Part shown: piece by piece, positions 2,382 through 18,336 of the stretch | Layout: each line of letters begins with the position of its first letter | Numbering within the stretch: the first letter of the stretch is position 1 | Source: a virus | Strand: one strand, 5' to 3' | Virus record (IMG/VR): IMGVR_UViG_3300023174_000151 | Span: 1-64,000 of that record | DNA length: 64,000 nucleotides | Position numbers and translations under genes: made by a program | Notes under the pieces: model-generated | Database searches by the model: none | Told to the model about the DNA's origin: nothing | The model's input: the letters and a program-made list of their open reading frames with translations, nothing else

Positions 2382-2392
2382 TCTCTGCACTT

Positions 2393-3225: not shown

Positions 3226-3582
3226 ATGCTTCACCCCATCACTCAAGAGATCGCTGCCTCCTTCGGGTACACACCTGTTACACCAGAAGAAAGGACCGAG
3301 CAATACGAAGTCGAACCTGACTTCCAAGACGCACCTAAGGGAGCTATCCCCTGCACCGGCAATGTCTTCCGTAACAAACAAGGAGTCTTACGTTGCTACT
3401 GGATTCCAGCCGGCAACAACTACACCTCGCAAGAGAAAGAAGATCTCATCGGTTGGTACGACATCCCCAGCCTAGAGGACATAGAAGAATGGACATTAGG
3501 TGATGAATGCTACACACCTGTATTCGATCAGGTAGAAGCTGATCATCCCGATTCCTGGCTACGTATCCTCAACGTTATCTAA
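3226..3582 (+). CDS. hypothetical protein
   Basis: 118-aa ORF; C-terminal VEADHPDSWL motif. Confidence 0.65.
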   Translation: MLHPITQEIAASFGYTPVTPEERTEQYEVEPDFQDAPKGAIPCTGNVFRNKQGVLRCYWIPAGNNYTSQEKEDLIGWYDIPSLEDIEEWTLGDECYTPVFDQVEADHPDSWLRILNVI

Positions 3583-3585
3583 TTG

Positions 3586-3619
3586 CCTGGGCACCCATCA
3601 CCATGGGGTAAGTCCCAGG
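3586..3619 (+). repeat. family C element
   Basis: CCTGGG-CA-CCCAT..ATGGG-G-TAAGT-CCCAGG. Confidence 0.7.
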
Positions 3620-3649
3620 TATCTAACCAAACCTTAATCTCCTCCTAAC

Positions 3650-3949
3650 ATGACTACCACTTCAACACGCATCAATGAGTACACAGTACTCAAACGTATT
3701 CTCAAAGAACTGAATGAGGTTGTAGCAAGGGAAAGCAAGCGTCCACAAGGATGTGAAGACCTCACACTTTCAATGCTTGCCCTCCTAAAAGAGGAGATCA
3801 TTCCTCAACTAGAGAATGAGATCGAGCATGATCTTGACTACGATCCAACACCTCAATACCTGTACGACAATACAGGGGGTGAGCCTCCAGTAACCATGGC
3901 AGAAATGCATGCTTGTGCTTGGCAACAACATCAAGAAATGCATAGCTAA
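3650..3949 (+). CDS. hypothetical protein
   Basis: 99-aa ORF. Confidence 0.65.
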   Translation: MTTTSTRINEYTVLKRILKELNEVVARESKRPQGCEDLTLSMLALLKEEIIPQLENEIEHDLDYDPTPQYLYDNTGGEPPVTMAEMHACAWQQHQEMHS

Positions 3950-4058
3950 ATCACACGTCCCATAGGTATCTAAGCTTTGTCTTGACAATGTCTTGACACT
4001 GTAATAATAATGTCTATACCTAACGTTAAACTGCTCACACTCCATTGCAATTCAACAC

Positions 4059-4424
4059 ATGCTCACAGCATCCACAACAAGTCTCAAAGAGACTATAAAA
4101 ACAATAGAAGATCGTATCGACGGTCTTATCTCCAAGCTAATCCGTAGCTTTGAGAAACAATATCCTGGTCGTTACGGTGACATGACCTTTGAGATTAACA
4201 AAGGTAATAAGTATTACAAGATCATGGAAGTAACAAGTTCCATGGGTTGTGTTACCAGTAGATCAGTCCATGCCTTTGTCAGTAGACAGACAGGTGCTGT
4301 ATACAAACCAGCAGGCTGGAAGTCTCCGGCTAAACACGTAAGGTACAACTTACTAGACGATGCATCCTATGCAAACTGTCTAGAGCGTGCCGACTGGGCA
4401 GGAGGTTATCTATACATAAGATAA
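4059..4424 (+). CDS. conserved phage early protein
   Basis: KYYKI..SVHAFV..TGAVYKPAGWKSPAKHVRYNL motif recalled from cyanophage and T4-like hypothetical proteins. Confidence 0.7.
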   Translation: MLTASTTSLKETIKTIEDRIDGLISKLIRSFEKQYPGRYGDMTFEINKGNKYYKIMEVTSSMGCVTSRSVHAFVSRQTGAVYKPAGWKSPAKHVRYNLLDDASYANCLERADWAGGYLYIR

Positions 4425-4535
4425 GGGCACACACTATGTGTCTTGACAATGTCCTGACATCTATCCCCCCTCGACCCCCCGTTGGGGTACCAGGGGGGAA
4501 CCTAATCTTCTATTAGTAATGTTAATGAATAACCT

Positions 4536-4817
4536 TTGTTAACATTTCTATCCATCCCTTACCTACCAAGTACACTACTTCAATCCAATCTCCAACCTAT
4601 CAACATGACTTCATCTAACCTTCCCAACATTCCCAACTCAATAAACACAGATCAACTACAAGCTATGGCCTTTGTAGCAAAGATGAAAGAAGCAGCTGAC
4701 CGTGTAGGTGCTGGCTTCATTGGTGGCTTTGTCACACCAGATGGTAAGAAATTTGTTATGACAAACTTCTCAGATCAAACAGACATTGACATGCTCCTAC
4801 CCGAAGGTTTGAAATGA
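4536..4817 (+). CDS. hypothetical protein
   Basis: ORF; probable start at internal ATG (MTSSNL). Confidence 0.55.
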   Translation: MLTFLSIPYLPSTLLQSNLQPINMTSSNLPNIPNSINTDQLQAMAFVAKMKEAADRVGAGFIGGFVTPDGKKFVMTNFSDQTDIDMLLPEGLK

Positions 4818-5011
4818 CTAAACGTTCACTCATCAGCTTTGATCGCACCATCCATGGTGTAAACATAACTGAACATGGAGTTAAATCATTTACCAAGTCA
4901 ATCAAACTTGGTCCGCTTCAACTAACTCTCAATGCCAATCCCAATGGTGTCAAAGGATCCTTTAGTATCCCTGGCACAGGACTAAGCATTCCAAACATTA
5001 AATTAATGTAA
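4814..5011 (+). CDS. DUF4236-like small protein
   Basis: KSIKLGPLQLTLN...FSIPGTGLS pattern. Confidence 0.5.
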   Translation: MTKRSLISFDRTIHGVNITEHGVKSFTKSIKLGPLQLTLNANPNGVKGSFSIPGTGLSIPNIKLM

Positions 5012-5015
5012 AGAT

Positions 5016-5054
5016 CTGGGCATTACCGACGCCAACTCGGTGTGTAAGTCCCAG
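5016..5054 (+). repeat. family C element
   Basis: CTGGG-CA..CCGA/TCGG..TG-TAAGT-CCCAG. Confidence 0.7.
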
Positions 5055-5086
5055 GTAAACAACCACTTCACCTCACTTCAATTTGT

Positions 5087-5290
5087 ATGACACCTTCTGA
5101 ATTCCACCAGCTTACCGATCTAATGCAACAGCATGGCGGTAAGTTTGTACAAAGTCTTGCTACTGCACTACGCTACGCTGATCCACTCAATAGGCAAAAG
5201 ATTCTAGATTCTTTTCCAGATCTTGTGCTTAAGTATGGACCTACGTCTATGTTCAATGCACCCATTCGTCAACCTATGGAGGTACTTTAA
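5087..5290 (+). CDS. hypothetical protein
   Basis: GGKFVQSLA..ADPLN motif recalled from small phage proteins. Confidence 0.7.
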   Translation: MTPSEFHQLTDLMQQHGGKFVQSLATALRYADPLNRQKILDSFPDLVLKYGPTSMFNAPIRQPMEVL

Positions 5291-5562
5291 TGTCATCTAT
5301 CTGGGCTATAAGACATGTTGATGTCTATCCCACAGGCGTCAACGAATATCAAGTCTATGCGGAAGCATGGATAGAAGATCGTATTCAAGTTAGTCCTGCT
5401 ACATGGGAAGAACCAGCAGAGCATAGGCCAGGCTTATGTTCTGCTTCCACCTATGTAGAGGACAAACCACCTAGCAACACAGAAGATCTAGAAGAGTATA
5501 TCCACGAATTAAATCGTGGTAATTCTCTTGACTGGATCGACGTTGATTCCACTGACATCTAA
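5290..5562 (+). CDS. hypothetical protein
   Basis: TAATG translational coupling to upstream ORF. Confidence 0.65.
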   Translation: MSSIWAIRHVDVYPTGVNEYQVYAEAWIEDRIQVSPATWEEPAEHRPGLCSASTYVEDKPPSNTEDLEEYIHELNRGNSLDWIDVDSTDI

Positions 5563-5567
5563 CTATC

Positions 5568-5822
5568 ATGATTGGATTTAGTATCGAATTCAAACCTTGG
5601 TATATCACAGTACGTGGTCCCAGAGGTAAAGTCTATCTAGCTACGGGCTTTAGTAAACATGTACCAGTTACACCACAGAAGTCAATACATCCAGACTTCT
5701 TGGTGATAAGACATCCGTATTGGGATTCTGAGTACTCTACGTTTATTAGTAATGCAACTAACTACATGTCAGAGCACTACGATGAACTAGAAGAAGAAAG
5801 ACAGTACGGTATTTACAAGTAA
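5568..5822 (+). CDS. hypothetical protein
   Basis: 84-aa ORF in operon. Confidence 0.6.
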   Translation: MIGFSIEFKPWYITVRGPRGKVYLATGFSKHVPVTPQKSIHPDFLVIRHPYWDSEYSTFISNATNYMSEHYDELEEERQYGIYK

Positions 5823-5880
5823 CTTATAGTATGTACGAGTAACTTACTTGTATATACACGCAACTTACAAGTAAACCAAT

Positions 5881-5907
5881 CGTCCTAAACATGACGTTAA
5901 AAGGTTT
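5881..5907 (+). promoter_or_regulatory. family D pseudoknot leader
   Basis: CGTC-CT-AAAC-AT-GACG-TTAAAAG-GTTT, 23 nt before ATG. Confidence 0.7.
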
Positions 5908-5930
5908 ACATCCCAACTACAACTCAACTC

Positions 5931-7664
5931 ATGCAATTCCAACTCCCATCAAACCTTCAGCAACACCTCGTCAAGTACGACCCTGAACTAAAGAAAGTTA
6001 TCGCAGCTGCTAAACCTAAGGTGACACGTAATACCCTTGGGTTACCAGATGATCTGATTCCTACTCACATTGTCAGTAAAGAAGAACTGCTACAAGCAGT
6101 TACTAATATCAATGCTGATCCAGTTGAAGATAGGTACCGTGTATTCCAAAAGGATACTGGCGAAGTCAAGGCTATTATCTACCACATAGAAAGCCTATGG
6201 GTAGCAGCCTGGTTACCTAAGTCTGGAGAAGACTACATCTATGGAATATCATTCGCATTTAAACCTAGTGCATTTAAGAAACTTAATATTCCCTACGGTA
6301 AAGATGGAAGGTTATTTAATATGGATAACGTTATCACCAAAAAGTATGGACGCATTGACTTCTGTACATGGACGGACTACATAACAAGAGACAGTATTGA
6401 AGCAGGGTTAACTACACCGTACTGGGCACATAATGCAACTAGTTACAAACAGAAGTTAGTACAAATCAAACGTGGAATTAAACTATTTACTGACCAACTT
6501 CAGCAGACTATACCTCACTGGAAGGATGATGGTACACATAATATGTTCAAGAGACTTGATCCTAAGACTAATAACTATAGATATATCCTACGTATAGCAG
6601 ATAACTTCACAGCAATTCTACATACACCAGAAGATCTTTTCTTGATCCCAGGAGTAGAACTATATAGGAAGTATCTAGATGATAACAACAAACATATACT
6701 AGATACACCTTGGTTCAAACGTTACATTAATACAGAAGCACAAAAGATAATTGATGCCTTCAATCATCCAGACACTAAGTCACCTGATGTATTAGTAGAT
6801 ATACATGAAGACATAAAGAAGATTCTTACCTGGATTAATAAAGTACTAAAGATATGGCCTGCTTGCCCTGTTGATTATTTACAGACTGCTATAAGCAATG
6901 ACATATTCAAAACACTTAGCATCTATAGCTTATGGCCTTCACCTTCCTCACCAGACTTAGTGCATGCCTGGCTTAATACTTATCTACCAGTAGAATCTTT
7001 CTTTAAAATTATCACCAAGTTCACAGAGGAATGGTTGAGTAGGTGCACAAACTATTCGCATACTACCAAGTACAATGCTACGTTTAGTTCATTGCGAGAT
7101 ACGATAGCAATGCTTGATCAGATACTTACAGCAGGTGAAACTATTGATCCACCTAAGCGTTGGCGCATAGAAGAATTCCATGATCATATCCAGACTAAAG
7201 CATGGACAATAAAGAATCCTAATCAAGAATTACCACAAGATCTATTCCCCACACCTATCAAAGTGTTAGATGAAGAACAGAACTGGACATTCTTTGAACC
7301 TAAAGATACAGATCAACTATCTCATCTATTTCCTACACCTAACAAAGGACAAACCTGGACATTCTTCCAGCCAAAAGATACGCACCAGCTATCCCAATGG
7401 GGGCAAGCAGTACGTAACTGTGTAGGTACAGCAGACTCATATGCTAATAACGTTAAAGCTAAGAAGGCATTCATTGTCTTGTGCATGTGCAACAACAAAC
7501 CTAAGTTCACTGTCTTGCTTAAGGTATCAGACGGTGTTATGCACGTAGACCAGATCGTTGGTTTGTCCAATGCCAGGCTCAACGATATTGAAAGAAACCT
7601 TTATGAAAATATGTTTAGCAAAGCATTGCAGCTACGAGAAGAAGAACTAAGATTAGATAACTGA
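5931..7664 (+). CDS. PcfJ-like domain protein
   Basis: C-terminal FHDHI...QLSQWGQAVRNCVG..Y...VDQIVG.SN pattern typical of PcfJ-like domains. Confidence 0.65.
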   Translation: MQFQLPSNLQQHLVKYDPELKKVIAAAKPKVTRNTLGLPDDLIPTHIVSKEELLQAVTNINADPVEDRYRVFQKDTGEVKAIIYHIESLWVAAWLPKSGEDYIYGISFAFKPSAFKKLNIPYGKDGRLFNMDNVITKKYGRIDFCTWTDYITRDSIEAGLTTPYWAHNATSYKQKLVQIKRGIKLFTDQLQQTIPHWKDDGTHNMFKRLDPKTNNYRYILRIADNFTAILHTPEDLFLIPGVELYRKYLDDNNKHILDTPWFKRYINTEAQKIIDAFNHPDTKSPDVLVDIHEDIKKILTWINKVLKIWPACPVDYLQTAISNDIFKTLSIYSLWPSPSSPDLVHAWLNTYLPVESFFKIITKFTEEWLSRCTNYSHTTKYNATFSSLRDTIAMLDQILTAGETIDPPKRWRIEEFHDHIQTKAWTIKNPNQELPQDLFPTPIKVLDEEQNWTFFEPKDTDQLSHLFPTPNKGQTWTFFQPKDTHQLSQWGQAVRNCVGTADSYANNVKAKKAFIVLCMCNNKPKFTVLLKVSDGVMHVDQIVGLSNARLNDIERNLYENMFSKALQLREEELRLDN

Positions 7665-7672
7665 TCTGCCAA

Positions 7673-7710
7673 TAGGTCGGTTACTTAATCCTTATTAAGT
7701 AATCGACCTA
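7673..7710 (+). other. 17-bp hairpin after PcfJ-like gene
   Basis: TAGGTCGGTTACTTAAT-CCTT-ATTAAGTAATCGACCTA (one G-T pair); no U-tract. Confidence 0.7.
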
Positions 7711-7749
7711 CCTTAAGCAAACAGTAGTACCAGACTACGTTTTTATCTC

Positions 7750-7962
7750 ATGACACAACACTACACCGATGATCAACTACTAGCTATGGCTATGGGAAAC
7801 CTTGGTACTTTTATCGAAACAAATACAAGACATTACATTCTCGTAGAAGATGATCCTCGTAATGAAGAAGACTATGACACATGGTCTTATGGTACTGAAC
7901 CATTACCTTATGATCATACTTGGTATTCAACATCTATTGAAATCAAACCCACTGAAGTATAA
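7750..7962 (+). CDS. hypothetical protein
   Basis: 70-aa ORF. Confidence 0.6.
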   Translation: MTQHYTDDQLLAMAMGNLGTFIETNTRHYILVEDDPRNEEDYDTWSYGTEPLPYDHTWYSTSIEIKPTEV

Positions 7963-8097
7963 TGACAAAAGAACTGCTTGATCAAGCTGATAAGCTTTGT
8001 AACAAACTTGAAAAGTTATGTTGGCAAACAGCAATGGATCAAAATGAACAATTGTACAACAGATACAAACAACTAAAATATAAAGCTTGGACTCGTT

Positions 8098-9072
8098 ATG
8101 AACGGCGCTTTAAAAAGTATCAATCAAATAATTAATCCTGCTCGTTCTTCTATTACAAAAGAAGAATTGTTTAATCAATTGTTTTCTCAAGCAAAACAAA
8201 AGTTTGCAATTGAACCTGGACCTATTGTTACAAGACAAAATAACGGTGACTTAACACAAGCTTTACATAAGTCTCAACAGTTTGCTCAACGTACATTGCA
8301 ACAACACATTGATACAGGAGCTTTAGAACTTGATCGTGTTCTTGGATCTATGGGAGTTCGTTCTAATCTATCTGGAACATTAAAGTATCCAACAATTAAT
8401 TATGTATTAGAACCAGGTGTTCATTACAAACGCCAACATAAATTACCAGCAGACCAATCTCGTGCAACTGTTCAATCGCCTGGCATGATTCAAGAGTTTA
8501 TAGGATTTAAAGATACGCCAATGATGGATTGGGATGTAGCTGGTCCTTATCATGCAGAACGCAATGCAACTATTAGACATTTAGGAGACGTAGAAGAACG
8601 CATTCAAAACTATTTAACACAAAGACCAGACGCAACAATTAAATTATATCAATCCCCAGGGGGGTATCGTGCCTTTGATTTAACAACAAGACAATCACCC
8701 ATTCAATACAATTCATCATTCGATTTATTAGATGTTGATCCAGACTATCGTATGATTTCACAACAGAAACCAGATGTTCTTAAATACGAAGGAACAATTC
8801 CTGTAAATGATACAGAGCGATTTAACGCTAGAATTAATCCTAAACTTAACCGTGTTGATTGGGTTGCTCAACCTATTGCATTAATCAAAGGAACACAATC
8901 TATTATTGATCCTGAAAGCAGACGACGTGTAAGTGTATATCATGATGAACCTATTGAAAAAAATTTCTTAACAGGTCAAGCTCAAACAGCTGGCCTTGAA
9001 AAAGTAAAAGAAAATTTACCTACTGCATCACAATTTTTACAGCAACAAATTCGTTCTTATCTTGGTTTATAA
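8098..9072 (+). CDS. hypothetical protein, possible divergent AEP-like fold
   Basis: PMMDWDV and YQSPGGYRAF resemble AEP motifs I and II. Confidence 0.5.
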   Translation: MNGALKSINQIINPARSSITKEELFNQLFSQAKQKFAIEPGPIVTRQNNGDLTQALHKSQQFAQRTLQQHIDTGALELDRVLGSMGVRSNLSGTLKYPTINYVLEPGVHYKRQHKLPADQSRATVQSPGMIQEFIGFKDTPMMDWDVAGPYHAERNATIRHLGDVEERIQNYLTQRPDATIKLYQSPGGYRAFDLTTRQSPIQYNSSFDLLDVDPDYRMISQQKPDVLKYEGTIPVNDTERFNARINPKLNRVDWVAQPIALIKGTQSIIDPESRRRVSVYHDEPIEKNFLTGQAQTAGLEKVKENLPTASQFLQQQIRSYLGL

Positions 9073-9132
9073 AATACAAAATGTAAGTTTAGTGATAAGA
9101 ATATAATATTAAATTGTTACATATTAATTATA

Positions 9133-9166
9133 CTTGGCATTCAACATCCGTTGATGTAAGCCCAAG
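9133..9166 (+). repeat. family C element
   Basis: CTTGG-CAT-TCAAC/GTTGA-TG-TAAGC-CCAAG. Confidence 0.7.
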
Positions 9167-9193
9167 ACATACGTTCACCTACTACACAACAAC

Positions 9194-9556
9194 ATGCAAA
9201 TCCTTGCTGCCTTTAAACATCTCATTCCTGAATTCCATGCTTACTCCGATCAAGACAAGCGTTACAACCTTGGCGCTACCTGGACAGCACCTGATGGCCT
9301 ACAAGACTTCCACAATCTGGAGCTACGATACGTTCATAACTCTGAACGTCTTGCGCTCCAAGGGGATCCGCAGCCTGACGGTAGCTGGAGATACATTGAA
9401 CCCAATGGTTCCGTGCATACCATCTCAGCTGAACGTGCAACTAAGTTTATGGATGACACCAATCGCCATGCCAATATCATGTGCGATATGTTAGATAAAT
9501 TAAAAGAACATGGTCTAAGTTCTACTATTGTAACTACTAGCGCTACAGCAGCGTAA
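9194..9556 (+). CDS. hypothetical protein
   Basis: 120-aa ORF followed by a GC hairpin at about 9575-9597. Confidence 0.65.
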   Translation: MQILAAFKHLIPEFHAYSDQDKRYNLGATWTAPDGLQDFHNLELRYVHNSERLALQGDPQPDGSWRYIEPNGSVHTISAERATKFMDDTNRHANIMCDMLDKLKEHGLSSTIVTTSATAA

Positions 9557-9601
9557 CTTTCCTGTACACCTCATGCCCCTGCCTTAGCGGGGGCTTTACC
9601 T

Positions 9602-9994
9602 ATGACTGATACCACCAGCCCTGAGTTCATTGATCTCAATCTTGTAGATCAAATTATGGAAGTTATTCCACCCTTAACCTGGCCCACAGTTCTTGATGGT
9701 GTAATCAACCAGATCATTGATGCTATGCCTAGTGATGTTCTGTTAAGACTTACTGGAGATCCAATGGGTTTTGAAGAAGCCGAAAGAATTTTATTCTCAT
9801 ACTATGCAGAACCTGAGAGGGAGAAAAAAGATCTTATCCTTGATGCCTTTAGGTGTATAGGAGAAGAACAGCTTTGTTACTTTTTGGATTCATTAGATCT
9901 TGAAAAGTTAAACAAACGTTTAGAACAACGTGCAGATACTGCGCCATGTTCTGTGGAAGAAACAAAAGAGTTCAATGACTTTTGGTTTGATTAG
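9602..9994 (+). CDS. hypothetical protein
   Basis: 130-aa acidic ORF. Confidence 0.65.
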   Translation: MTDTTSPEFIDLNLVDQIMEVIPPLTWPTVLDGVINQIIDAMPSDVLLRLTGDPMGFEEAERILFSYYAEPEREKKDLILDAFRCIGEEQLCYFLDSLDLEKLNKRLEQRADTAPCSVEETKEFNDFWFD

Positions 9995-10051
9995 TTTTGA
10001 TGGACTTAGGATGTCCTTAAACTCAACTACATTCCATTACTACACAACACC

Positions 10052-10813
10052 ATGCAACTTCTTAAATTCAGCACAGGCAATGGCAAACTTTCTAATCGAT
10101 TAATCTTTAATATCCCAGCGGGGTACACGTGCCCACATGCTGGTGTATGTAAGACATTTGCTGACAAGACTACCGGTAAGATTACTGATCTACCACAGCT
10201 CACAGGTACAATTGCACCTGAGTTCAGATGCTTTGCTGCCATGGCAGAGACTAGACCTAATGTACGTGATGCACGTTGGTATAACTGGGATCTATTAAGA
10301 GAAGCTTTGTACTCAGGAGAGAATCAAGTCAATCAATTAAGTGCATTAATCAAATTGTCTTTGATTGTACAGACAGATATGAGTCTTATACGTATACATG
10401 AGAGTGGTGATTTTTGGACAGAGAAGTATATGGCAGCTTGGATTAAAGTTGCACAAGAAGATCCTGATACTACCTACTATGCCTACACTAAATCACTAGG
10501 TATGTGGCTTAGCTTGCGAGATAGTATACCTAATAACTTTATGTTGACCGCATCTGTGGGTGGCACACTTGACTACTTACTTCCTAAGTATCCGGATGTG
10601 TTTAAACGTATAGCTTATGTTGTATACACAGAAGAAGAGGCGGCTACACGTGGATTAGAGATAGACCATGACGATAGTCATTGTTTAGGAGATAAACCGT
10701 TTGCACTATTGGTGCATGGGTCCCAACGAGCAGGGTCTGACGCAAGTAAAGCACTTGCCAAACGAAAGAAGGATGGTGGTTTTGTTGGTTACAACAAGAA
10801 GAAAGTAGCATAA
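10052..10813 (+). CDS. GP88-family phage protein
   Basis: FNIPAGYTCPxAGxC...CFA...RIHESGDF...YAYTKS signature. Confidence 0.75.
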   Translation: MQLLKFSTGNGKLSNRLIFNIPAGYTCPHAGVCKTFADKTTGKITDLPQLTGTIAPEFRCFAAMAETRPNVRDARWYNWDLLREALYSGENQVNQLSALIKLSLIVQTDMSLIRIHESGDFWTEKYMAAWIKVAQEDPDTTYYAYTKSLGMWLSLRDSIPNNFMLTASVGGTLDYLLPKYPDVFKRIAYVVYTEEEAATRGLEIDHDDSHCLGDKPFALLVHGSQRAGSDASKALAKRKKDGGFVGYNKKKVA

Positions 10814-10869
10814 AGGTTGCGTTCTAACTAAAGGTGTGTACTATGCTGGTGCACACCTTCAACTAGTTT

Positions 10870-11103
10870 ATGTCCTACGTTATTGCAACCTGGAAAGACA
10901 ACAAACCATATGCCATCCATTCCAATATGGAGGCTATGCAATTTGAACTAATACCACTAGACTCACAAGGCGCAATCAATAGAATGTATTCCAACCCACA
11001 TCGGGCTGGTGCACAACAAATCTTGACATGGATTAAAAGCAATGACACAAAACTTAACAGTGAAGACCTCAAAATTTGTGATGAGTCCCAGTTCCGCAAA
11101 TGA
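10870..11103 (+). CDS. hypothetical protein
   Basis: 77-aa ORF overlapping the polymerase start. Confidence 0.55.
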   Translation: MSYVIATWKDNKPYAIHSNMEAMQFELIPLDSQGAINRMYSNPHRAGAQQILTWIKSNDTKLNSEDLKICDESQFRK

Positions 11104-13687
11104 ATGTTGGCTTATCTTTGATATAGAAACTGACGGATTTTATGATCAAGCTACTAAAACATTCTGCATTGTCATCTATGATGTCACGCGAGCAGAAACT
11201 TTTGCTTATGGGCCTGATCGCATTGATGATGCTATTGCTTATCTGGCAACCGCTGATGTTCTTATAGGACACAACATAATCTTTTATGATCTCCCTGTCC
11301 TCCAAAAGCTACATTCATTTGTCGCCAAAGCACGCATCATTGATACGCTCATATGTACACGCATCATTTGGCCTAAAGAAAAACTCTATGACCTTGACAT
11401 AGAACAGTATCCAAATGTACCAGCGAAGATAAGAGGTAATGCATCACTTAAAGCTTGGGGTTGGCGTCTTGCTGATAACAAGATTGACTTCAAAGACTTC
11501 TCTGAATACTCAGAGGAGATGCTTATGTACTGTAAACAAGATGTCCAAGTAACACTAAAGTTATATAAGCATATTGTGAAGGAGAAGTATCCTGAATCAG
11601 CGCTTAGACTTGAGCACGACTTCGCACTTGCAATTAATAAACAGATTAGAGCCGGTGTTCCATTTGATGTGGACGCCTGTCTTGATCTAGTAGATAACCT
11701 TAGAAAAAAGAAAGTAGAACTAGAAGAACAATTAAAACAAATTTTTCCACCTATTAAACATAAGACTTGGTTTACACCTAAGGTGAATAATACTGCCCGT
11801 GGTTATGTGAAAGACGTACCATTTGAAAAAACAATAATAGAAGAATTCAACCCTGGTTCACGTAAGCAAATTGTTGAGCGACTCAAGAGTAAGTATGGGT
11901 GGGAACCAGAGAAGACAACAGAGAAAGGTAATCCAATTCTTGATGATGAAGTAATTGAAAAGTTACCATACTCAGAGGCTAAACCTTTAGCTGAATACAT
12001 GTTAATTAAAAAACGTTTAGGGCAAATAGAAGATGGTAACAACGCTTGGCTCAAGCTTGTTAATAACAACACTGGTCGTATGCACGGTGATGTTATTACT
12101 AACGGTTGTATTACTGGTCGTGCAAGTCATCGTCATCCCAACATGGGTCAAGTCCCTGCTGGTTATTCACCTTATGGTAAAGAGTGTCGTGCGTTATTTC
12201 ATGCGCCCCAAGGATGGGACATGATTGGTATAGATGCCAAGGCTTTGGAGCTGCGTTGTCTTGCTGGTTACTTAGCTTATTGGGATCAAGGTGAATATGC
12301 CAAGCTTGTTATTAATCCTGAATCAGATATACATACCATTAACCAAAAGTTATTTGGTGTAGAAACCAGGGATATAGCTAAGCGTTTACTTTATGCTTGT
12401 GTTCCTACTGATATAACAACAGTGCTTACAAAAGAAGGATGGAAAACATATGATGAATTAAAGGTTGGTCAATTAGTTTTAACTTACAACGAAGAAAAAG
12501 AAATAAAAGAATGGAAGCCTATTCTTGAAATCATACTTGAACATGAAGATGATGTTTGGCAAATGCAACATAATCATTCATTCAAAGTACAAGCTACCGC
12601 TGACCATCGGTGGTATGTAAAGAAACGTAAACGTAATAGAAATGTATCTTGCGGTTGGAGCACGGGTAAAAATTATATGGTGTCTAAAGTTGAAACAACA
12701 ACAGAAATAAATACTGAATCTAATATTATTGTTAATGCCCTATTAGTTGAACCTGAATCTTTGCCAATTGACATTGATTGGAAGTGGCAAAAATATGGTA
12801 CAGATTGGACTAAAGTTATTTTAAAAATGAACCAAGCCCAACGTAAAGCTTGGCTATCTGGATTCATAATTGCTGATGGCTTTCAATCATGTAAACCAGA
12901 TCAAAAAGAGAAATGGCATTGGACACAAATACGTAATGAACATTATGAAGCAGCTTTAGTTGCTTCTTATCTGGAATTTCCAGGGGTAATACATGTTGCT
13001 AAGCCATCACTCAATGCTAGTGGTACTACACAAATGCATGTGAGCATTGCAAATAAAGGTCATGTTACTGGACAAAAATTACAAAAGACTTATATAGGAA
13101 AGAAGAATGTATTTTGTATACGTACCGAAAATAAATCTTTTGTTATGCGCCAAGGGGATTGTATTACCATTACAGGAAATTGTTTATATGGTGCAGGTTC
13201 TTTGAAGATGGGAGGAATTATTAATCCGCATGAAAAAGATGAAACAGTTTTGCGTAATCTAGGAAAAACTGCAATGAATTTATTCCTTAAAGGTGTGCCT
13301 GCATTAGCTGAACTTAAAACAAAGATTGAGAGTTACATTTTGACTCGTCAACATTTAATTGGTCTTGACAAACGTGTCTTGTATTGTCGTTCACCTTTTA
13401 AAGGTTTGAATGTGTTGTTACAATCAGCAGGTGCAATCCTAATGAAACAAGTTGTAATAACAATACATAAGAACATCGAAACAAACTTGTCCTTACCCCA
13501 TGGTCAGGAGTGGGAACAAGTCTTGATGGTGCATGATGAAGTTCAATTGGTTTGCAACCCTAAATATACAGAACAGATTAGAGAACAAGCTATGCTTGCC
13601 TTCCCTCAAGCACAGGAATTCTTTGAGTTCCTTTGTCTTATAGAAGGAGATTCTCGTGTAGGATCTGACTGGTCAGCGACACACTGA
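11042..13687 (+). CDS. polA: family A (T7-like) DNA polymerase with 3'-5' exonuclease, intein-containing
   Basis: FDIETDG, GHNIIFYD, YCKQDV; TGRASH, DAKALELR, RDIAKRLLYA/CLYGAG, VHDEVQ; start may be ATG 11081. Confidence 0.95.
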   Translation: MTQNLTVKTSKFVMSPSSANECWLIFDIETDGFYDQATKTFCIVIYDVTRAETFAYGPDRIDDAIAYLATADVLIGHNIIFYDLPVLQKLHSFVAKARIIDTLICTRIIWPKEKLYDLDIEQYPNVPAKIRGNASLKAWGWRLADNKIDFKDFSEYSEEMLMYCKQDVQVTLKLYKHIVKEKYPESALRLEHDFALAINKQIRAGVPFDVDACLDLVDNLRKKKVELEEQLKQIFPPIKHKTWFTPKVNNTARGYVKDVPFEKTIIEEFNPGSRKQIVERLKSKYGWEPEKTTEKGNPILDDEVIEKLPYSEAKPLAEYMLIKKRLGQIEDGNNAWLKLVNNNTGRMHGDVITNGCITGRASHRHPNMGQVPAGYSPYGKECRALFHAPQGWDMIGIDAKALELRCLAGYLAYWDQGEYAKLVINPESDIHTINQKLFGVETRDIAKRLLYACVPTDITTVLTKEGWKTYDELKVGQLVLTYNEEKEIKEWKPILEIILEHEDDVWQMQHNHSFKVQATADHRWYVKKRKRNRNVSCGWSTGKNYMVSKVETTTEINTESNIIVNALLVEPESLPIDIDWKWQKYGTDWTKVILKMNQAQRKAWLSGFIIADGFQSCKPDQKEKWHWTQIRNEHYEAALVASYLEFPGVIHVAKPSLNASGTTQMHVSIANKGHVTGQKLQKTYIGKKNVFCIRTENKSFVMRQGDCITITGNCLYGAGSLKMGGIINPHEKDETVLRNLGKTAMNLFLKGVPALAELKTKIESYILTRQHLIGLDKRVLYCRSPFKGLNVLLQSAGAILMKQVVITIHKNIETNLSLPHGQEWEQVLMVHDEVQLVCNPKYTEQIREQAMLAFPQAQEFFEFLCLIEGDSRVGSDWSATH
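12398..13180 (+). mobile_element. intein (261 aa) with degenerate LAGLIDADG-like region
   Basis: Begins CVPTD, block B ATADHRW, WLSGFIIADG, ends VFCI..ITITGN with +1 Cys; removal restores motif B. Confidence 0.9.
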
Positions 13688-13692
13688 TTAAC

Positions 13693-13721
13693 CGTCCTCC
13701 GAGTATGACGTTAAACTGCTC
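13693..13721 (+). promoter_or_regulatory. family D pseudoknot leader
   Basis: CGTC-CTCC-GAGTA-T-GACG-TTAAAC-TGCTC, 23 nt before ssb ATG. Confidence 0.75.
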
Positions 13722-13744
13722 TACCACCTAACCCCTGACATCAA

Positions 13745-14548
13745 ATGAATTATGTTGACGCATGCGCTGTACTGAACGAGACTCCTCGTGAGGTATTCAC
13801 CAGTGCCACTTCATCCAATCTGTGTGCGGAAGTTATCCTTCCACCTGCAGGAAACAAATCTCCAACTCACATCAAACTTCATGTTTACGGAAAAGCTTGC
13901 GACAAGTTTAAGGACCTACCCAAGGGAACACGGATCTACATACATGGCTCGAAGCTACGGCATGATCTGGACACCCGTACGCACTCACTACATGGTGGAG
14001 TTATCGCTGCGGTTACTGAATCATTCCCGATCTTTAACGATGTCATCCTCACCGGAAGATGTGTAAAAGACATTGATGAAAAAGATCCGCGTTCATTTAG
14101 AACTACACCAGAAGGTTTGATGATTTGTAATCAAACACTTGCTGTTAACACAGGACGTAATCAGTCTGATCTGTTTAACTTCTCTGCTATTAACAGTGCA
14201 CAAGATAAGTTAAATCAAGCTGAACTACTTGCAAACTTCACACGTAAAGGAACAGGACTTACAATCCGTGGTCGTTTAGTAACCGATTCGTGGATTGATA
14301 AAGACACCAAAGAAAAACGTGCGTATGTAAAAATTCAATTAGTACAAATGACTCTTGCACCTAAGGTAACTTCTAGTTCAACAGAACCAGTGGCACCTAA
14401 GCCACAAACACAAGTAGCTAGCACAGGTCCGACCTTGTCAGATCCAGTGGAAACTGCTAGTCTTTGGGGCACAACCAGTGTTGGATTACCTGATCTACCT
14501 GGTGTGTATTCAGCTCCTACTTTCAACGAATCTGAACCTCCCTTCTGA
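13745..14548 (+). CDS. ssb: single-stranded DNA-binding protein, probably two OB folds
   Basis: NDVILTGR...TLAVN...AELLANFTRKG..IRGRL.TDSW.DK; acidic EPPF tail. Confidence 0.8.
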   Translation: MNYVDACAVLNETPREVFTSATSSNLCAEVILPPAGNKSPTHIKLHVYGKACDKFKDLPKGTRIYIHGSKLRHDLDTRTHSLHGGVIAAVTESFPIFNDVILTGRCVKDIDEKDPRSFRTTPEGLMICNQTLAVNTGRNQSDLFNFSAINSAQDKLNQAELLANFTRKGTGLTIRGRLVTDSWIDKDTKEKRAYVKIQLVQMTLAPKVTSSSTEPVAPKPQTQVASTGPTLSDPVETASLWGTTSVGLPDLPGVYSAPTFNESEPPF

Positions 14549-14751
14549 TGACTACTACACACAACCAGTTCACTTTCTTATATGAAGATGGTGAAGACCG
14601 AATCTTGTACGAATTTAAAGCAGTAACTACTGATGAAATTATGCATAGGTTTACAGACTTTTTAAAAGGTTGTGGACATTATGACGCTTCCATCTTAAAT
14701 AGCATGGAAGAAATGGTTGAAGAGTACCGAACACATGGATCTCCTATTTGA
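14548..14751 (+). CDS. conserved phage hypothetical protein
   Basis: YEF.A...EI..RF.DFLKGCG motif. Confidence 0.65.
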   Translation: MTTTHNQFTFLYEDGEDRILYEFKAVTTDEIMHRFTDFLKGCGHYDASILNSMEEMVEEYRTHGSPI

Positions 14752-14766
14752 TTCTATTTAAGATTG

Positions 14767-14792
14767 ACGTCGAGCTGGACGTTAAACGTAGC
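14767..14792 (+). promoter_or_regulatory. family D pseudoknot leader (weaker second stem)
   Basis: ACGTC-GAGCTG-GACGT-TAAAC-GTAGC, 22 nt before ATG 14815. Confidence 0.55.
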
Positions 14793-14814
14793 ATTCCTGT
14801 CCTCTGAATTTACT

Positions 14815-15858
14815 ATGATTGCTCTCATGGCTACTAAGAAAACCACCTCAAGCGGGAGTGATAACTCCTCTTCTCTGGTATCTAAGAGGAGTCTTGACTC
14901 CTTTCGGATGTTCCAGTCCAAAGAATTTGTTTCTGGCTACCAGAATCTAGTTACCATTCAACCGTTAAACAAATCTAAAACACGTGGTTGGTTTGTTCGC
15001 AAGTCCGACTTGGATACCTGTGGATGGACTGCTACTGAAGATCAGTTTGCAAATGGTTCTGTTATCTGGGACTATAAACAAACCTTTGGTATGGCACCAA
15101 ATACTTCCATTGAAGAAGGGTTAAACTTCATTGAGCCTCGTCTGCAGATACTCTTGCGCTCTCCACTTATGGTGGAAGAGACTAGCGGTATGCGTCAGAC
15201 AATTGGTACCTTTGAAGATCCAGAAGTAAAGCAGATGTTCGATAACGATCGTCTTGCTGCTGAACTGGAGAACAGCAAAGGTAACATGTACAAACGTAAG
15301 TACAGCGTACGTACAAAATACCTTGTGTATGTCTTAACTCAAGACAACAGAAGGGCGCATAAGATTCCAATGGTCCTTACTCTTAAGGGCTTAAATGGAA
15401 CTGATGTCAGCGATAAAGTTAAGCTTTATGAAAAAGAAATGTCTAAATGCCTTAGCAAAGCATTAGACTCTGAAATCCCTTTGGCATTCAATGAAAAGTT
15501 CTATGCCACTACAGTGTTTACTCCCCTCTTGGCTAACGAGATGCGTGGTGCAAACAATGTAGAAATCTGTGCCATTGAAAGTTTTGAGATTCCTGATTAC
15601 AGTTCGCAAGAAATTGCAATCGAATCTTTAAGTAACATGTCGATTCCTGATGAAGATCGTGAATCTACATGGAAGATGCAAGGAATATTTGAAGACTACA
15701 TCAACCAACATGCTCGTCAGGATGCCAAGAAACTTGGTGGTGCCTACGGTATTGCAGAAGGTGTAGAGATTCTACCTGTCTCACGTTCCGGTAACACAGT
15801 TGACGTAAAGGTTCTACCTGCACGCAATGAAATTACTGGTGAAGACGACAGCCTTTAA
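14815..15858 (+). CDS. replication-module protein, possibly DUF5895-like
   Basis: Located after ssb; MVLTLKG motif; in-frame ATG 14815 preferred to TTG 14764. Confidence 0.55.
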   Translation: MIALMATKKTTSSGSDNSSSLVSKRSLDSFRMFQSKEFVSGYQNLVTIQPLNKSKTRGWFVRKSDLDTCGWTATEDQFANGSVIWDYKQTFGMAPNTSIEEGLNFIEPRLQILLRSPLMVEETSGMRQTIGTFEDPEVKQMFDNDRLAAELENSKGNMYKRKYSVRTKYLVYVLTQDNRRAHKIPMVLTLKGLNGTDVSDKVKLYEKEMSKCLSKALDSEIPLAFNEKFYATTVFTPLLANEMRGANNVEICAIESFEIPDYSSQEIAIESLSNMSIPDEDRESTWKMQGIFEDYINQHARQDAKKLGGAYGIAEGVEILPVSRSGNTVDVKVLPARNEITGEDDSL

Positions 15859-15871
15859 TTAAACCAAACTT

Positions 15872-15899
15872 AGGGTCAGCATTTATGCTGGCCCTTTTT
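15872..15899 (+). terminator. rho-independent terminator
   Basis: AGGGTCAGCA-TTTA-TGCTGGCCCT followed by T-run. Confidence 0.75.
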
Positions 15900-15913
15900 C
15901 ACATCTACTTACA

Positions 15914-16294
15914 ATGACCCAACAATTTTCTCAAGCACAACTCAATCACATGAAAGAACTAAGGGAATCAGGTAACAGTCAACGTACTGTTGCAACAATG
16001 TACAACTGCCATCGAAAGACTATCTACTATTGGGAGTCACGTGCTTTTGTACTAACTAACAATTCAATAATGTTCCAGACTCAAGGTCGTTATCGTTCTA
16101 ACTCAAAGTACTTTGTTCAACAAGAAGAGCTTGACAGAATGAAAAAACTAAGGGAGCAAGGTATGACCCAGGAAGTGGTGGCTGGTTTGCTGGGACGTAC
16201 AAGAGCTACAGTTCGTCATTGGGAACGTCGTTCATTCCTTTTGGATGATAAGCTTCCTGCATCAGATCCAGTGAATCCTTCACTAGTCCCTTGA
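15914..16294 (+). CDS. tandem HTH DNA-binding protein
   Basis: Two similar units: MKELRESGNSQRTVA..TIYYWE and MKKLREQGMTQEVVA..TVRHWE. Confidence 0.8.
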   Translation: MTQQFSQAQLNHMKELRESGNSQRTVATMYNCHRKTIYYWESRAFVLTNNSIMFQTQGRYRSNSKYFVQQEELDRMKKLREQGMTQEVVAGLLGRTRATVRHWERRSFLLDDKLPASDPVNPSLVP

Positions 16295-16436
16295 TTACAA
16301 CTTGCCTTGTTGTTGCAATCTTGGTAAGTAACACTGCCATTTCTCGTAACTCAGCGATAGATGAGCAGTCGTTAATTTGTCGAGTCATCTTCTCTTGCCA
16401 GAACATATCTTCTGGCGACAGTATAAATTGCAACAT
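16206..16436 (-). CDS. NblA-like protein (divergent)
   Basis: LSPEDMF..RQI...S..EL.EM...L....RQ....LVK matches the NblA two-helix pattern. Confidence 0.5.
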   Translation of the reverse strand: MLQFILSPEDMFWQEKMTRQINDCSSIAELREMAVLLTKIATTRQVVIKGLVKDSLDLMQEAYHPKGMNDVPNDEL

Positions 16437-16480
16437 TAGCCACTACTCAATTACTAATCCTCATTGTAACCTCTTGAACC

Positions 16481-17428
16481 ATGACTACTACAGCAACACA
16501 TACTGAACTTAATGCAGCACAAACAACCATCTACACGCGAACAAATATATTGCGTGCGTTTCCAGACTTCGATGACTCTGGCGTGGTTGGTATTTACCTG
16601 CGAGGTGACTCTTGTCTTGTTGTGTATCGCGATGGTACTGAACGGTTGTATCCAAAGGATGCAATTAAAACAACTTTCATTTCCTATACGCACAGACTCA
16701 AGGACTTCTTTTCATACCTTGGACCTAATTACAGGGGGCCAAGTATCTGGCACGATAACTCTTACATCCTATTCAAAGGCTGGAACTACAGTCACACACT
16801 TGGACACTTAAATGACAATGCAAAACTACAAGGCCAATGGGCAGATAAGTTCATTCGTCTTACTGATCCAACAAAACTTAAGGCGTTGCTTCAGTCAGAG
16901 CACACAGACCTTGGGCATTTGGTTGCACCGGACGGGTTGCGGCTTCCAGATCGGCTCCCTGATTTGGACTCTGAGTTGGAGACAGTGCAAGAAGAACGGC
17001 CCATGTTTGGCGAACCTAACTGCTCATGTGGGTCCTTTCAACGTCAGCTCAACAACCTACCTTTGTTCCAACAAGAGATCGAAGGATTCAAACCACACTG
17101 CATCCACTTAACTTGGATTGCTAAATACAGAAGCCTACTATCCAAACGCACTGAGGCACGTGACGCATGTCCTGCTGGTGTCCCACACACTTGTGTTGCT
17201 TGGTGGTACCAGCCTCCTATGAATCATACCAGTGATGGTCGTTTCCTTTTACTACACACTAAGTCTGGGGTGCAAGCGCCCCTTAGCCATTGGCGTACTT
17301 ACAAACCTAAAGAATCATTTACTCAGCGTCATGCTTGGGATCTATTCTTTAGTATGCTTGATGCAGGCTACGTACCATTCCCTGGTACCTCACTACCTCA
17401 ACTAAGGATGGCTTTTAAACATGACTAA
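16481..17428 (+). CDS. SWIM zinc-finger protein
   Basis: CSCGSF...CIHL motif. Confidence 0.7.
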   Translation: MTTTATHTELNAAQTTIYTRTNILRAFPDFDDSGVVGIYLRGDSCLVVYRDGTERLYPKDAIKTTFISYTHRLKDFFSYLGPNYRGPSIWHDNSYILFKGWNYSHTLGHLNDNAKLQGQWADKFIRLTDPTKLKALLQSEHTDLGHLVAPDGLRLPDRLPDLDSELETVQEERPMFGEPNCSCGSFQRQLNNLPLFQQEIEGFKPHCIHLTWIAKYRSLLSKRTEARDACPAGVPHTCVAWWYQPPMNHTSDGRFLLLHTKSGVQAPLSHWRTYKPKESFTQRHAWDLFFSMLDAGYVPFPGTSLPQLRMAFKHD

Positions 17429-17589
17429 TCCAAATGCATGGCTTACCAAACTAGCCAGCGCCATGTTTGGGATCTATTATTTAATATGCTTGATGCAGGC
17501 TATGTACCATTCCCTGGTACCTCACTACCTCAACTAAGGATGGCTTTTAAACATGACTAATCCAAATGCATGGCTTACCAAACTAGCCA
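17324..17589 (+). repeat. 132-bp tandem duplication across a gene junction
   Basis: Two copies offset by 132 bp with 5 mismatches in the 5' part. Confidence 0.95.
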
Positions 17590-17747
17590 TTGATATTACA
17601 GAAGAAGACAATAGTCCCTGTCTAATGAAAATTGACTGGGACGAAACTGATCCAGAGCTTGACTACTGGAGTAACCTAAGCCAAGAGGGTAAAGAAACCC
17701 TTATCCACAATCTCCTCAACCCTGACGGTACTCACCATGACCATTGA
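17553..17747 (+). CDS. hypothetical protein
   Basis: 64-aa ORF, IDWDETDP motif. Confidence 0.65.
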   Translation: MTNPNAWLTKLAIDITEEDNSPCLMKIDWDETDPELDYWSNLSQEGKETLIHNLLNPDGTHHDH

Positions 17748-18141
17748 TGCATACGGACTTCCATTTGAACAATACGAAGATTTTTTTTCAAGCAATGCAG
17801 CCAATCTAATTGAAACGTATATTGCAACACATAAGTATTTTACAGAAGCAATAAAAGAAGTATATGGAGAAACTGCTACATATGTTCCAGTAGATTCTCC
17901 TGTCTTCTTGGAACTATTCAATGGGCTTGTTTATGAGACGAATAATGAATGTCGTCGTTACCAAAAGAAAAACAATCCTGAAGCTATGAAAGACGTTAGG
18001 TTAAGTCCTGATTTATTTGGTAATGATGAACTTCTTGATCAAATAAAAAAAGTCAATCAAAAAATAGATGATCTGCTTGAAGTCTTTATTATTGCACCAC
18101 CAAACCTACCTCCTAATATCACAGGAGACACGGAGGGGTGA
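17737..18141 (+). CDS. hypothetical protein
   Basis: 134-aa ORF. Confidence 0.65.
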   Translation: MTIDAYGLPFEQYEDFFSSNAANLIETYIATHKYFTEAIKEVYGETATYVPVDSPVFLELFNGLVYETNNECRRYQKKNNPEAMKDVRLSPDLFGNDELLDQIKKVNQKIDDLLEVFIIAPPNLPPNITGDTEG

Positions 18142-18169
18142 GTAGACTCCTGTTGTTCATGTGAGGAAC

Positions 18170-18196
18170 CGTCCTGGTGATGACGTGAAAAGCACC
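18170..18196 (+). promoter_or_regulatory. family D pseudoknot leader
   Basis: CGTC-CT-GGTG-AT-GACG-TGAAAAG-CACC, 23 nt before ATG 18220. Confidence 0.75.
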
Positions 18197-18219
18197 GCCA
18201 AACCTACCTATTCAATTTA

Positions 18220-18333
18220 ATGTTTGAAACCATTCTTGCTTACATTCTTCCCTTTGCCAAAGACTTACTTTGGACAGCATGCGCAGCAATGCTGGCCTTA
18301 GTACTCGCCAAAATCAAATCCCAATTCATCTGA
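18220..18333 (+). CDS. 37-aa hydrophobic peptide (not in ORF track)
   Basis: MFETILAYILPFAKDLLWTACAAMLALVLAKIKSQFI; at family D spacing and 3 nt before the next ATG. Confidence 0.6.
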   Translation: MFETILAYILPFAKDLLWTACAAMLALVLAKIKSQFI

Positions 18334-18336
18334 ACC

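Follow-up and report, generated by a model that had tools for sequence, protein, structure and literature searches.

A covarying, coremin-like pseudoknot between the early cistrons of a probable lake cyanophage

The DNA analysed here, referred to below as the window, is a stretch of 64,000 nucleotides (nt), positions 1 to 64,000 of the IMG/VR record IMGVR_UViG_3300023174_000151, and represents the first 64 kb of a viral contig of 72,113 bp. Judging from its genes, the window belongs to an S-EIV1-like Synechococcus phage, a lake cyanophage, with early and replication genes on the + strand of 1-34 kb. Six sites of a small RNA pseudoknot are found in front of these genes: four intact copies, one stem variant and one copy split in two. 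The pseudoknots, the untranslated leaders that follow them and the genes around them are listed below, with stems given as 5′ strand/3′ strand.

3956-3960, + strand: 5′ half of the split copy (CGUCC), 6 nt past the stop TAA 3947-49
3961-4022, + strand: insertion of 62 nt in the knot loop, with tandem TTGACA boxes
4023-4037, + strand: 3′ half of the split copy (ACGUUAAAC-UGCUCA), followed by leader 4038-58
4059, + strand: start of the DUF7717 gene
5881-5908, + strand: copy 1; stem 1 CGUC 5881-84/GACG 5893-96; loop 3 UUAAAA 5897-5902; stem 2 5886-90/5904-08, 5 bp, UAAAC/GUUUA; leader 5909-30, G-free, 22 nt
5931, + strand: ATG of the PcfJ-like gene
10002-10029, + strand: type II variant; stem 1 GGAC 10002-05/GUCC 10013-16; loop 3 UUAAAC 10017-22; stem 2 10007-09/10027-29, only 3 bp; leader 10030-51
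10052, + strand: ATG of the GP88-family gene
11042-13687, + strand: family A DNA polymerase, 881 aa, stop TGA 13685-87
13693-13721, + strand: copy 2, with a 10-nt loop; stem 1 13693-96/13707-10; loop 3 UUAAAC 13711-16; stem 2 13701-05/13717-21, 5 bp, GAGUA/UGCUC, one G-U; leader 13722-44, 23 nt
13745, + strand: ATG of ssb, encoding the single-stranded DNA-binding protein (SSB)
14768-14792, + strand: copy 3, short-loop subtype; stem 1 14768-71/14778-81; loop GAGCUG; loop 3 UUAAACG; stem 2 14774-77/14789-92, 4 bp, GCUG/UAGC, one G-U; leader 14793-14814, 22 nt
14815, + strand: ATG of the DUF5895 gene
18170-18197, + strand: copy 4; stem 1 18170-73/18182-85; loop 3 UGAAAA; stem 2 18175-79/18193-97, 5 bp, UGGUG/CACCG, one G-U; leader 18198-18219, 22 nt
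18220-18333, + strand: open reading frame (ORF) for a hydrophobic 37-aa peptide (MFETIL..., a putative membrane peptide), its start picked out by the knot spacing
26719, + strand: start of the primase-helicase gene

An initial annotation of this DNA had reported four CGTC-loop-GACG-T(T/G)AAA sites whose loop pairs with the tail. The pattern CGTC-N6-10-GACGT[TG]AAA indeed matches four times in the window, at 5881, 13693, 14768 (one base from the reported site) and 18170, every time on the + (gene) strand, while a mean of 0.005 matches is expected by chance and only 1 of 200 simulations of the window under a first-order Markov model had any match. The short word GACGTKAAA is weaker evidence, with 4 occurrences against 1.28 expected, a number reached in 4 of 100 shuffles. 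The anatomy of the pseudoknot is as follows: stem 1 has 4 bp, CGUC/GACG; loop 1 is a single C; stem 2, in which the hairpin loop pairs with the tail, has 4 to 6 variable bp, with one junction base after its 5′ strand; and loop 3 reads UUAAAC. The hairpin loops in the window (CUAAACAU, CUCCGAGUAU, GAGCUG, CUGGUGAU and UUAGGAU) begin with C in three cases out of five, and with G or U otherwise. Loop 3 is UUAAAC at four of the six sites, UUAAAA at one and UGAAAA at one, so that AAA is present in all.

A covariance model, R1, was built and searched against the window, as the initial annotation had proposed. Copies 1 and 4 scored 36.6 bits (E 1.4e-6) and 29.2 bits (E 7.9e-5), but both were in the training set; copy 2, which was outside it, was found at 31.0 bits (E 2.9e-5, 13690-13725). 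In copy 3 only the GACGUUAAAC core was matched, not the whole copy, and its membership rests on relatives: the same short-loop subtype occurs in five further distinct contexts (L018, L019, L022, L031, L035), where the changes in stem 2 are one-sided (C/U opposite G). The Rfam comparison, also proposed, was informative only in the negative, as no family of Rfam 15, preQ1-I, pistol and frameshift elements included, matched at any of three sensitivities: 0 matches at the gathering score over the 64 kb, none at the pseudoknot sites in 20 kb at E≤10, and 0 on the 71 nt around copy 2.

To judge the pairing, we used 84 distinct sequences that had been selected on stem 1, loop 3 and an 8-nt loop only, a choice blind to stem 2, and scored them against the structure ...((((.[[[[[[.))))......]]]]]]... 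Stem-2 cells were paired in 90.0% of cases, compared to 79.4% in shuffles (0 of 500 as high), and doubly changed cells numbered 108 compared to 35. All six pairs vary on both sides; the score is 0.364, while shuffles gave 0.159 and none of 500 came up to it. Registers slid along the tail gave 20-50% pairing. G-U pairs are common, for instance 19 U-G at one pair. Covariation together with such frequent G-U pairs points to an RNA of the sense strand only, and the motif is, on this comparative evidence, best described as an H-type pseudoknot that acts at the RNA level and covaries strongly. The loop-tail covariation first read from four sites thus holds over a much larger set.

Since the 84 sequences were chosen by stem 1, covariation of that stem was judged on orthologous sites. 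In the nearest isolate, Synechococcus phage S-EIVl (KJ410740.1; DNA polymerase 66% and SSB 57% identical), stem 1 is UGUC/GACA twice and AGUC/GACU once at such sites. The single-stranded bases, that is the C of loop 1 and UUAAAC, are invariant. Upstream of ssb the knot is present in 10 of the 10 relatives for which that region is available, and in S-EIVl as well, and there loop and tail change together (AAGCA/UGCUU, AGGUA/UGCCU, AAGUA/UGCUU, GAGUA/UGCUC). Five relative genomes have 4 to 5 copies each, all in the early and replication block, with a total of 22 on the gene strand and 0 on the opposite one; a reversed control pattern gave 1. We also considered, and rejected, that the motif might be a DNA hairpin or the promoter of a phage-encoded RNA polymerase, on the grounds that no RNA polymerase gene turned up among the window ORFs covered by general scans, and that G-U pairing and covariation concern the sense strand only.

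Two of the six window sites depart from the canonical form. The variant at 10002, which the initial annotation had tentatively included, was not found by R1 at E≤10, and its stem 2 is short. It was placed by orthology: 80 loci gave 64 distinct regions upstream of GP88 homologues, in which stem 1 is xGUC/GACx in 31, the U-G wobble form in 1 and GGAC/GUCC in 24. In the GGAC/GUCC copies stem 2 covaries. Across the phage copies, natural changes in the spacer fall at positions 13-14 (UU, UA, CU, AU). By orthology the 10002 variant is a true family member with a compensated stem. In many of the copies upstream of GP88 in L252-L314, mostly of the GGAC/GUCC type, a short hairpin follows (AUAAGY-N3-RCUUAU and variants).

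The second site had been described as a 3′ half-copy at 4023. That half is present (a local R1 match only, E 7), and its 5′ half is there too, at 3956-3960, parted from it by the 62-nt insertion. A contig of RNA reads from run X1 links 3960 to 4023 via 8 letters, by which a canonical knot is rebuilt, and the relative L181, 97% identical in the neighbouring gene, has an intact knot at the 3956-4037 locus. The insertion contains the best sigma-70-like match of 1-20000 (3982-4011: TTGACA, 18 nt, AATAAT, 11 of 12 positions). Sigma-70-like sites are not enriched over the same 20 kb (37 against 48.8 expected), and none lies directly before an intact copy. Downstream of the insertion that broke the knot, the DUF7717 gene and its leader are unaltered. 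This broken copy with a promoter insertion amounts to a natural experiment, and it fits with a knot needed only by internal cistrons. As a separate observation, a GTCTTGACAATGTC(Y)TGACA box with tandem −35-like hexamers is found twice on the + strand, at 3979-4003, inside the insertion, and at 4440-4460; the latter GTCTTGACAATGTC directly follows the DUF7717 gene and precedes a stretch at 4465-4500 that is rich in G/C and structured.

The knot is placed with precision relative to both neighbouring cistrons. Stem 2 ends 22, 23, 22 and 22 nt before the ATG in copies 1 to 4, and the ATG stands 28-30 nt past T(T/G)AAA at all six window sites, as the fixed gap noted initially had implied. The spacing also picks out real starts: the 37-aa ORF at 18220-18333, which has no Pfam or PHROGs match, has seven distinct homologous peptides in relatives, each encoded immediately after the same knot. 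When viral contigs were scanned for the letters of stem 1 and loop 3, at least 140 stretches came up. Among the matches listed, to which all viral counts below refer, 136 instances are distinct and 86 of these are well paired (at least 5 contiguous loop-tail pairs). The ATG is 25-29 nt past UUAAAC in 43 of the 86 and 30-36 nt in 17, less than 25 nt in 2, and absent from the next 60 nt in 14. Placement relative to starts was thus not random, in the window as in the viral contigs. Upstream, a stop triplet stands exactly 5 nt ahead of CGUCC in 34 of the 86, other distances occurring 1 to 11 times each. When only stops that close an ORF were kept (frame open over at least 25 codons), 23 were at 5 nt and just 2 closer in, and the numbers fell off at larger distances. 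Neither peak, stop or ATG, was seen with 30 poorly paired matches to the pattern. In the window itself the upstream stops are 5, 6, 7, 16, 28 and 58 nt from the knot, the first of these being the DNA polymerase stop before copy 2.

The six window leaders are C/A-rich, some 22-25 nt long, and contain 5 G in 136 nt (3.7%), compared to 19.5% G on the + strand of 1-19000. Their minimum free energies range from 0 to −4.1 kcal/mol, none beyond shuffles, so that they are predicted to be unstructured, and the G-poor spacers without Shine-Dalgarno site described initially are borne out. Upstream of GP88, where an extra hairpin follows the knot, the ATG is found at 38-42 nt instead of 24-28. A structure that has to stay folded beside both a terminating and an initiating ribosome would be expected to show this pattern of ATG and stop spacing, and we infer that the knot sits as near to both ribosomes as they permit. 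RNA contigs (runs X1-X4, of which small shares were used) cross the knots at 13693 and 14768, a result that says nothing of RNA ends, as contigs cannot reveal them.

The invariant parts of the knot resemble coremin, the exonuclease-resistant RNA of plant viruses (GUCC...GACGUUAAACU), whose sequence is given in the Methods of PMC10520033. From letter comparison the match extends to the stem CGUC/GACG with its C-G closing pair, the C that follows, and the spacer UUAAACU, that is 15 of 20 letters in two blocks. According to PMC6546385, hairpin 1 (hp1) of coremin pairs C1-G12, G2-C11, U3-A10 and C4-G9, nucleotide 5 is C and the loop is CGAA; in the spacer U13U14A15A16A17C18U19A20C21, A16-A20 are essential and U13U14 are tolerant; resistance to Xrn1 requires a second hairpin, hp2; and the element works in vitro without ligand. 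The phage spacers vary precisely at positions 13-14, where coremin tolerates change, and the four intact window copies, like the GGAC/GUCC variant at 10002, have an hp1 of the coremin type, 3-5 bp long and closed by a pyrimidine-purine pair. Differences are also clear. The loop consensus YGAD or YGNNAD is absent: phage loops have 6-10 nt, and apart from the first base they depart from it and pair with the tail. No hp2 hairpin is predicted by folding before the ATG at any of the six window sites, though the hairpin that follows knots upstream of GP88 in relatives recalls it. Coremin resides in the 3′ untranslated region of RNA viruses, whereas the phage knot lies between cistrons in the mRNA of a DNA phage. 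On the 10-nt coremin spacer (UUAAACUAC.) the comparison gives a mixed picture: the AAA is always kept, and positions 19-21 are taken by stem 2.

Another parallel is xrRNA-WCC (selected variants, Sanxia picorna-like virus 5; PMC10321173), also an H-type knot, built on the coremin scaffold, with a canonical stem 2 between loop and spacer. In that paper, the Watson-Crick stem 2 was proven via compensatory mutants, the coremin element promotes −1 frameshifting, in an E. coli screen included, hp2 is dispensable for frameshifting and ribosome stalling in the Watson-Crick type, and ordinary frameshift pseudoknots of comparable size offer no resistance to Xrn1. The two differ in that stem 2 of xrRNA-WCC has 3 bp (nt 6-8/18-20) and nucleotide 5 is G, while the phage stem has 4-6 bp placed after C18 and nucleotide 5 is C. 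Coremin also stops scanning ribosomes, as reported in PMC10520033, and a flaviviral exonuclease-resistant RNA halts bacterial RNase J1 as well (PMC5760640).

With a stricter pattern, 89 stretches were found in bacterial and archaeal genome contigs, and the 80 loci examined contained 82 instances. Chance alone would account for about 50 of the 89 by our own arithmetic at equal base frequencies, and because of this sizeable background only stem-2 pairing tells true genomic copies: 33 of the 82 have a full stem 2 and 24 have one mismatch. These copies are mostly from Firmicutes, Saccharibacteria, Phytoplasma and Alphaproteobacteria, with one Synechococcus metagenome-assembled genome (MAG) and one Haloarcula besides. 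Among the 57 instances whose stem 2 is complete or has a single mismatch, none came from a record with a beta- or gammaproteobacterial name, several records naming no phylum. The same fold thus seems, from these sequence matches, to be widespread in phages and bacteria, without an Rfam entry. The literature searched, the S-EIV1 genome paper lying outside its scope, yielded no description of coremin-like elements from phages or bacteria, and PMC10520033 contains no word starting with "bacteri" or "prokaryot".

Set against the known phyletic distribution of RNase J, these lineages give a weak hint of a bias towards RNase J bearers, one that is phylogenetically confounded. Of five knot-bearing genomes tested, four encode RNase J family proteins above the cut-off, among them the Synechococcus MAG with a knot copy (680 bits); the search discriminates poorly, as 13 of 14 control genomes gave matches, 8 of them above the cut-off. 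The bacterial contexts vary: some knots have strong Shine-Dalgarno sites downstream, others, on several Firmicutes contigs, have U-tracts after stem 2. In L396-L398, a single bacterial contig, type III hammerheads (RF00008, 42-51 bits) begin at the 3′ edge of the knot in 4 of 4 copies, and self-cleavage of a hammerhead so placed would leave the knot as the 3′ end of the upstream RNA. On Erysipelotrichaceae and Bacilli contigs (L335, L354, L356, L372, L376, L384, L409) a flanking helix (UAUUACCU ... AGGUAAUA) surrounds a variant knot whose stem 2 is weakened to 4 of 6 pairs. This helix would mask the Shine-Dalgarno site of a conserved MK(Y/F/H)Y... gene, in a riboswitch-like layout.

What the data show is a conserved fold, precisely placed and akin to coremin; from this we propose that the knot blocks bacterial nucleases or ribosomes, and is retained for that reason. 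It would be a mechanical boundary that shields the downstream cistron rather than an operator of the gene 32 kind, a reading we hold tentatively, with a probability of about 0.4. Within the polycistronic early and replication mRNA, the knot would fold as a boundary between cistrons, just beyond the reach of the upstream terminating ribosome and just outside the 30S footprint on the next AUG. Decay or scanning from upstream (the exonuclease RNase J, 5′-end-dependent RNase E, stray ribosomes) would halt there, the downstream cistron would retain a defined and protected 5′ end, and the unstructured, G-poor leader of about 22 nt would serve as a landing pad for Shine-Dalgarno-independent initiation. 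In bacterial mRNAs, the known 5′ stabiliser stem-loops and the obstacles to RNase E scanning or RNase J consist, at primary 5′ ends, of plain hairpins or of bound ribosomes. They share with the phage element the proposed job of barring 5′-end-dependent decay, and differ from it in that the latter is a conserved knot inside operons. The generic character of the role is suggested by sequence replacement in relatives: in 3 of the 64 regions upstream of GP88 (L308, L309 and L320, L329 being similar), a YUGGGCA-hairpin-GUAAGUCCCAR family stands in for the knot. Four or five of the 64 have neither element, some of them with stop and ATG coupled. Neither a gene-specific operator nor an indispensable enhancer sits well with this interchangeability and with the promoter insertion at 3961-4022. 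Several points weigh against our proposal. Function in any bacterium or phage is argued by analogy; the six window sites lack the hp2 that coremin requires against Xrn1; the stop anchor, the hammerheads and the U-tracts point to the 3′ end of the upstream RNA; 14 of the 86 instances lack a nearby ATG; the tight ATG spacing could equally reflect a direct role in initiation; and the RNA contigs span the knots without ends there, with the limit already given. The hammerhead and U-tract contexts, together with the missing second hairpin, argue against a pure 5′ shield.

These same contexts are what a 3′-end cap would explain, i.e. a knot that marks the boundary of the upstream message and shields its 3′ end after nearby cleavage or termination. 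The exact 5-nt stop spacing, found also at the polymerase stop before copy 2, the U-tracts and the instances lacking an ATG all agree with it. Nevertheless we consider it unlikely, since the stop is 16, 28 and 58 nt away in three of the six window copies while all six hold the ATG distance, what coremin folds are known to resist is 5′-to-3′ threading, and the insertion left the upstream gene of the broken copy without a knot. A small knot of 4+6 bp would moreover be an odd choice against 3′ exonucleases, where a GC hairpin would presumably serve. The narrow ATG distance and the G-poor, unstructured leaders without Shine-Dalgarno sites suit a translation enhancer or standby site, the reading of the initial annotation, in which the knot would dock on the 30S platform or on ribosomal protein S1 and feed the leader in; the extra hairpin upstream of GP88, which shifts the ATG by about its own length so that the last structure stays some 20 nt from it, is in line with this. 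Such leaders are nevertheless common to all early genes, knot or no knot, the DUF7717 leader persists after loss of the knot, knots of other hosts are followed by strong Shine-Dalgarno sites at differing distances, or by no gene, and some relatives couple GP88 straight to the upstream stop without a knot, which makes the enhancer distinctly unlikely. The knot might instead insulate cistrons from read-through or sliding ribosomes, which would let them be translated independently and leave downstream folds and starts undisturbed; with the 5-nt stop spacing, its first pair would lie just beyond the helicase site of the ribosome. Coremin blocks scanning and stalls elongating ribosomes enough for frameshifting, in E. 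coli too, and the position directly ahead of hammerheads is compatible with such a stop. It is not obvious, however, that ribosomes sliding more than 50 nt after termination pose a problem in bacteria, and the fixed ATG distance is left unexplained; an insulator, quite improbable in itself, overlaps with a shielding boundary rather than excluding it.

The initial annotation had likened the element functionally to the T4 gene 32 pseudoknot, on ssb and other DNA-metabolism genes, with protein binding as one of its possible roles. On such a reading it would be an operator for one trans-acting protein such as the phage SSB, defining a replication-gene regulon. The invariant single-stranded bases, the copy before ssb in every relative examined and in S-EIVl, and the 4-5 copies confined to the early/replication block of each relative speak for it. 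In T4 the pseudoknot is much farther from the AUG than here, the operator is an A/U-rich repeat tract, bound cooperatively, that runs up to the start, and the arrangement is specific to ssb. The phage described here does share a pseudoknot upstream of ssb followed by an unstructured leader, but only one of the six window copies precedes ssb, the others standing before the PcfJ-like, GP88, DUF5895, DUF7717 and 37-aa peptide genes; its leaders are rich in C and A, and the two knots belong to different sequence families. In addition the knot is anchored to stops, is exchanged for another element in relatives, was lost to an insertion, and has other contexts in bacteria, and the same core occurs in unrelated phages, several bacterial phyla and eukaryotic RNA viruses, which have no such protein in common. 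We conclude that an SSB-type operator is very unlikely, and that an autoregulatory leader tied to ssb and DNA metabolism is not supported. Least credible of all is a riboswitch for a small ligand, similar in topology to preQ1-I, or a signal for recoding, be it −1 frameshifting or read-through of the upstream stop. Luteovirus-type knots, that of beet western yellows virus (BWYV) for example, are H-type, of similar size, with loop 1 short and loop 3 rich in A, and preQ1-I resembles the phage knot in topology and size. The BWYV knot is also comparable in dimensions to coremin hp1 plus spacer, yet knots of its type did not resist Xrn1 (PMC10321173). The 5-nt stop-to-knot spacing equals that of frameshift spacers, and the Erysipelotrichaceae helix would hide a Shine-Dalgarno site. 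Yet Rfam gave nothing even at E≤10 on 71 nt, several copies per genome stand before unrelated genes, and coremin works in vitro without ligand. As for recoding, the slippery site and overlapping frame of BWYV-type knots are absent at the phage knots: no X XXY YYZ heptamer precedes copy 2 (...GACACACUGAUUAAC), frames close within a few codons, and read-through of the polymerase stop meets another stop after 6 codons.

Extended beyond this phage, the idea of a shielding boundary leads to a broader and more doubtful proposal, namely that the knot is the first natural class of prokaryotic exoribonuclease-resistant RNA, with which phages and bacteria of RNase J-bearing lineages would punctuate their operons, using the coremin fold that they share with eukaryotic RNA viruses. 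RNase J or RNase E, and ribosomes, would be stopped at cistron borders, and this would set 5′ ends and lifetimes per cistron. If true, this would be a new and very compact means of cistron-specific mRNA stability inside operons, one RNA fold of about 28 nt would serve plant RNA viruses, DNA phages and bacteria alike, and synthetic biology would gain a tiny insulator part. In a more practical way, the knot flags true starts and small genes in poorly annotated phages, as for ATG 14815 and the 37-aa ORF at 18220.

Some features of the window bear on the phage rather than on the knot. A megablast of 9 kb against the phage collection gave no match, and a tRNA search found none. Early genes have G-poor leaders without Shine-Dalgarno site, and several late genes carry one, e.g. 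AAGGAG. In the DNA polymerase, tblastn matches to phage polymerases, S-EIVl included, span only about 70% of the protein, in two pieces, and residues ~455-765 lie outside the Pfam and PHROG matches; the gap suggests an insertion such as an intein or homing element. A tyrosine-integrase-like gene on the − strand (35802-36656, phrog_1, E 3.7e-39) adjoins a transcription-regulator-like gene (36765-37514), a pair whose similarities hint at a temperate lifestyle for this S-EIV1-like phage.

Other structured elements are found in the leaders of the window. The family that replaces the knot upstream of GP88 in a few relatives belongs to a second type, in which a variable hairpin, its stem covarying, separates YUGG(G)CA from GUAAGYCC(C)AR; it is present on the + strand at 2775-2803, 3587-3618, 5016-5054 and 9134-9166, and on the − strand at 55874-55847. 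Its four + strand copies end 27-32 nt ahead of an early-gene ATG. Two further leader elements, CAGUCAUURCC...GGAGAUGGGYACC and ACCAGGCUUUCCUGCAG..., are repeated before small early ORFs on the + strand, at 1352-1384 and 1600-1629, and at 1924-1960 and 2475-2511.

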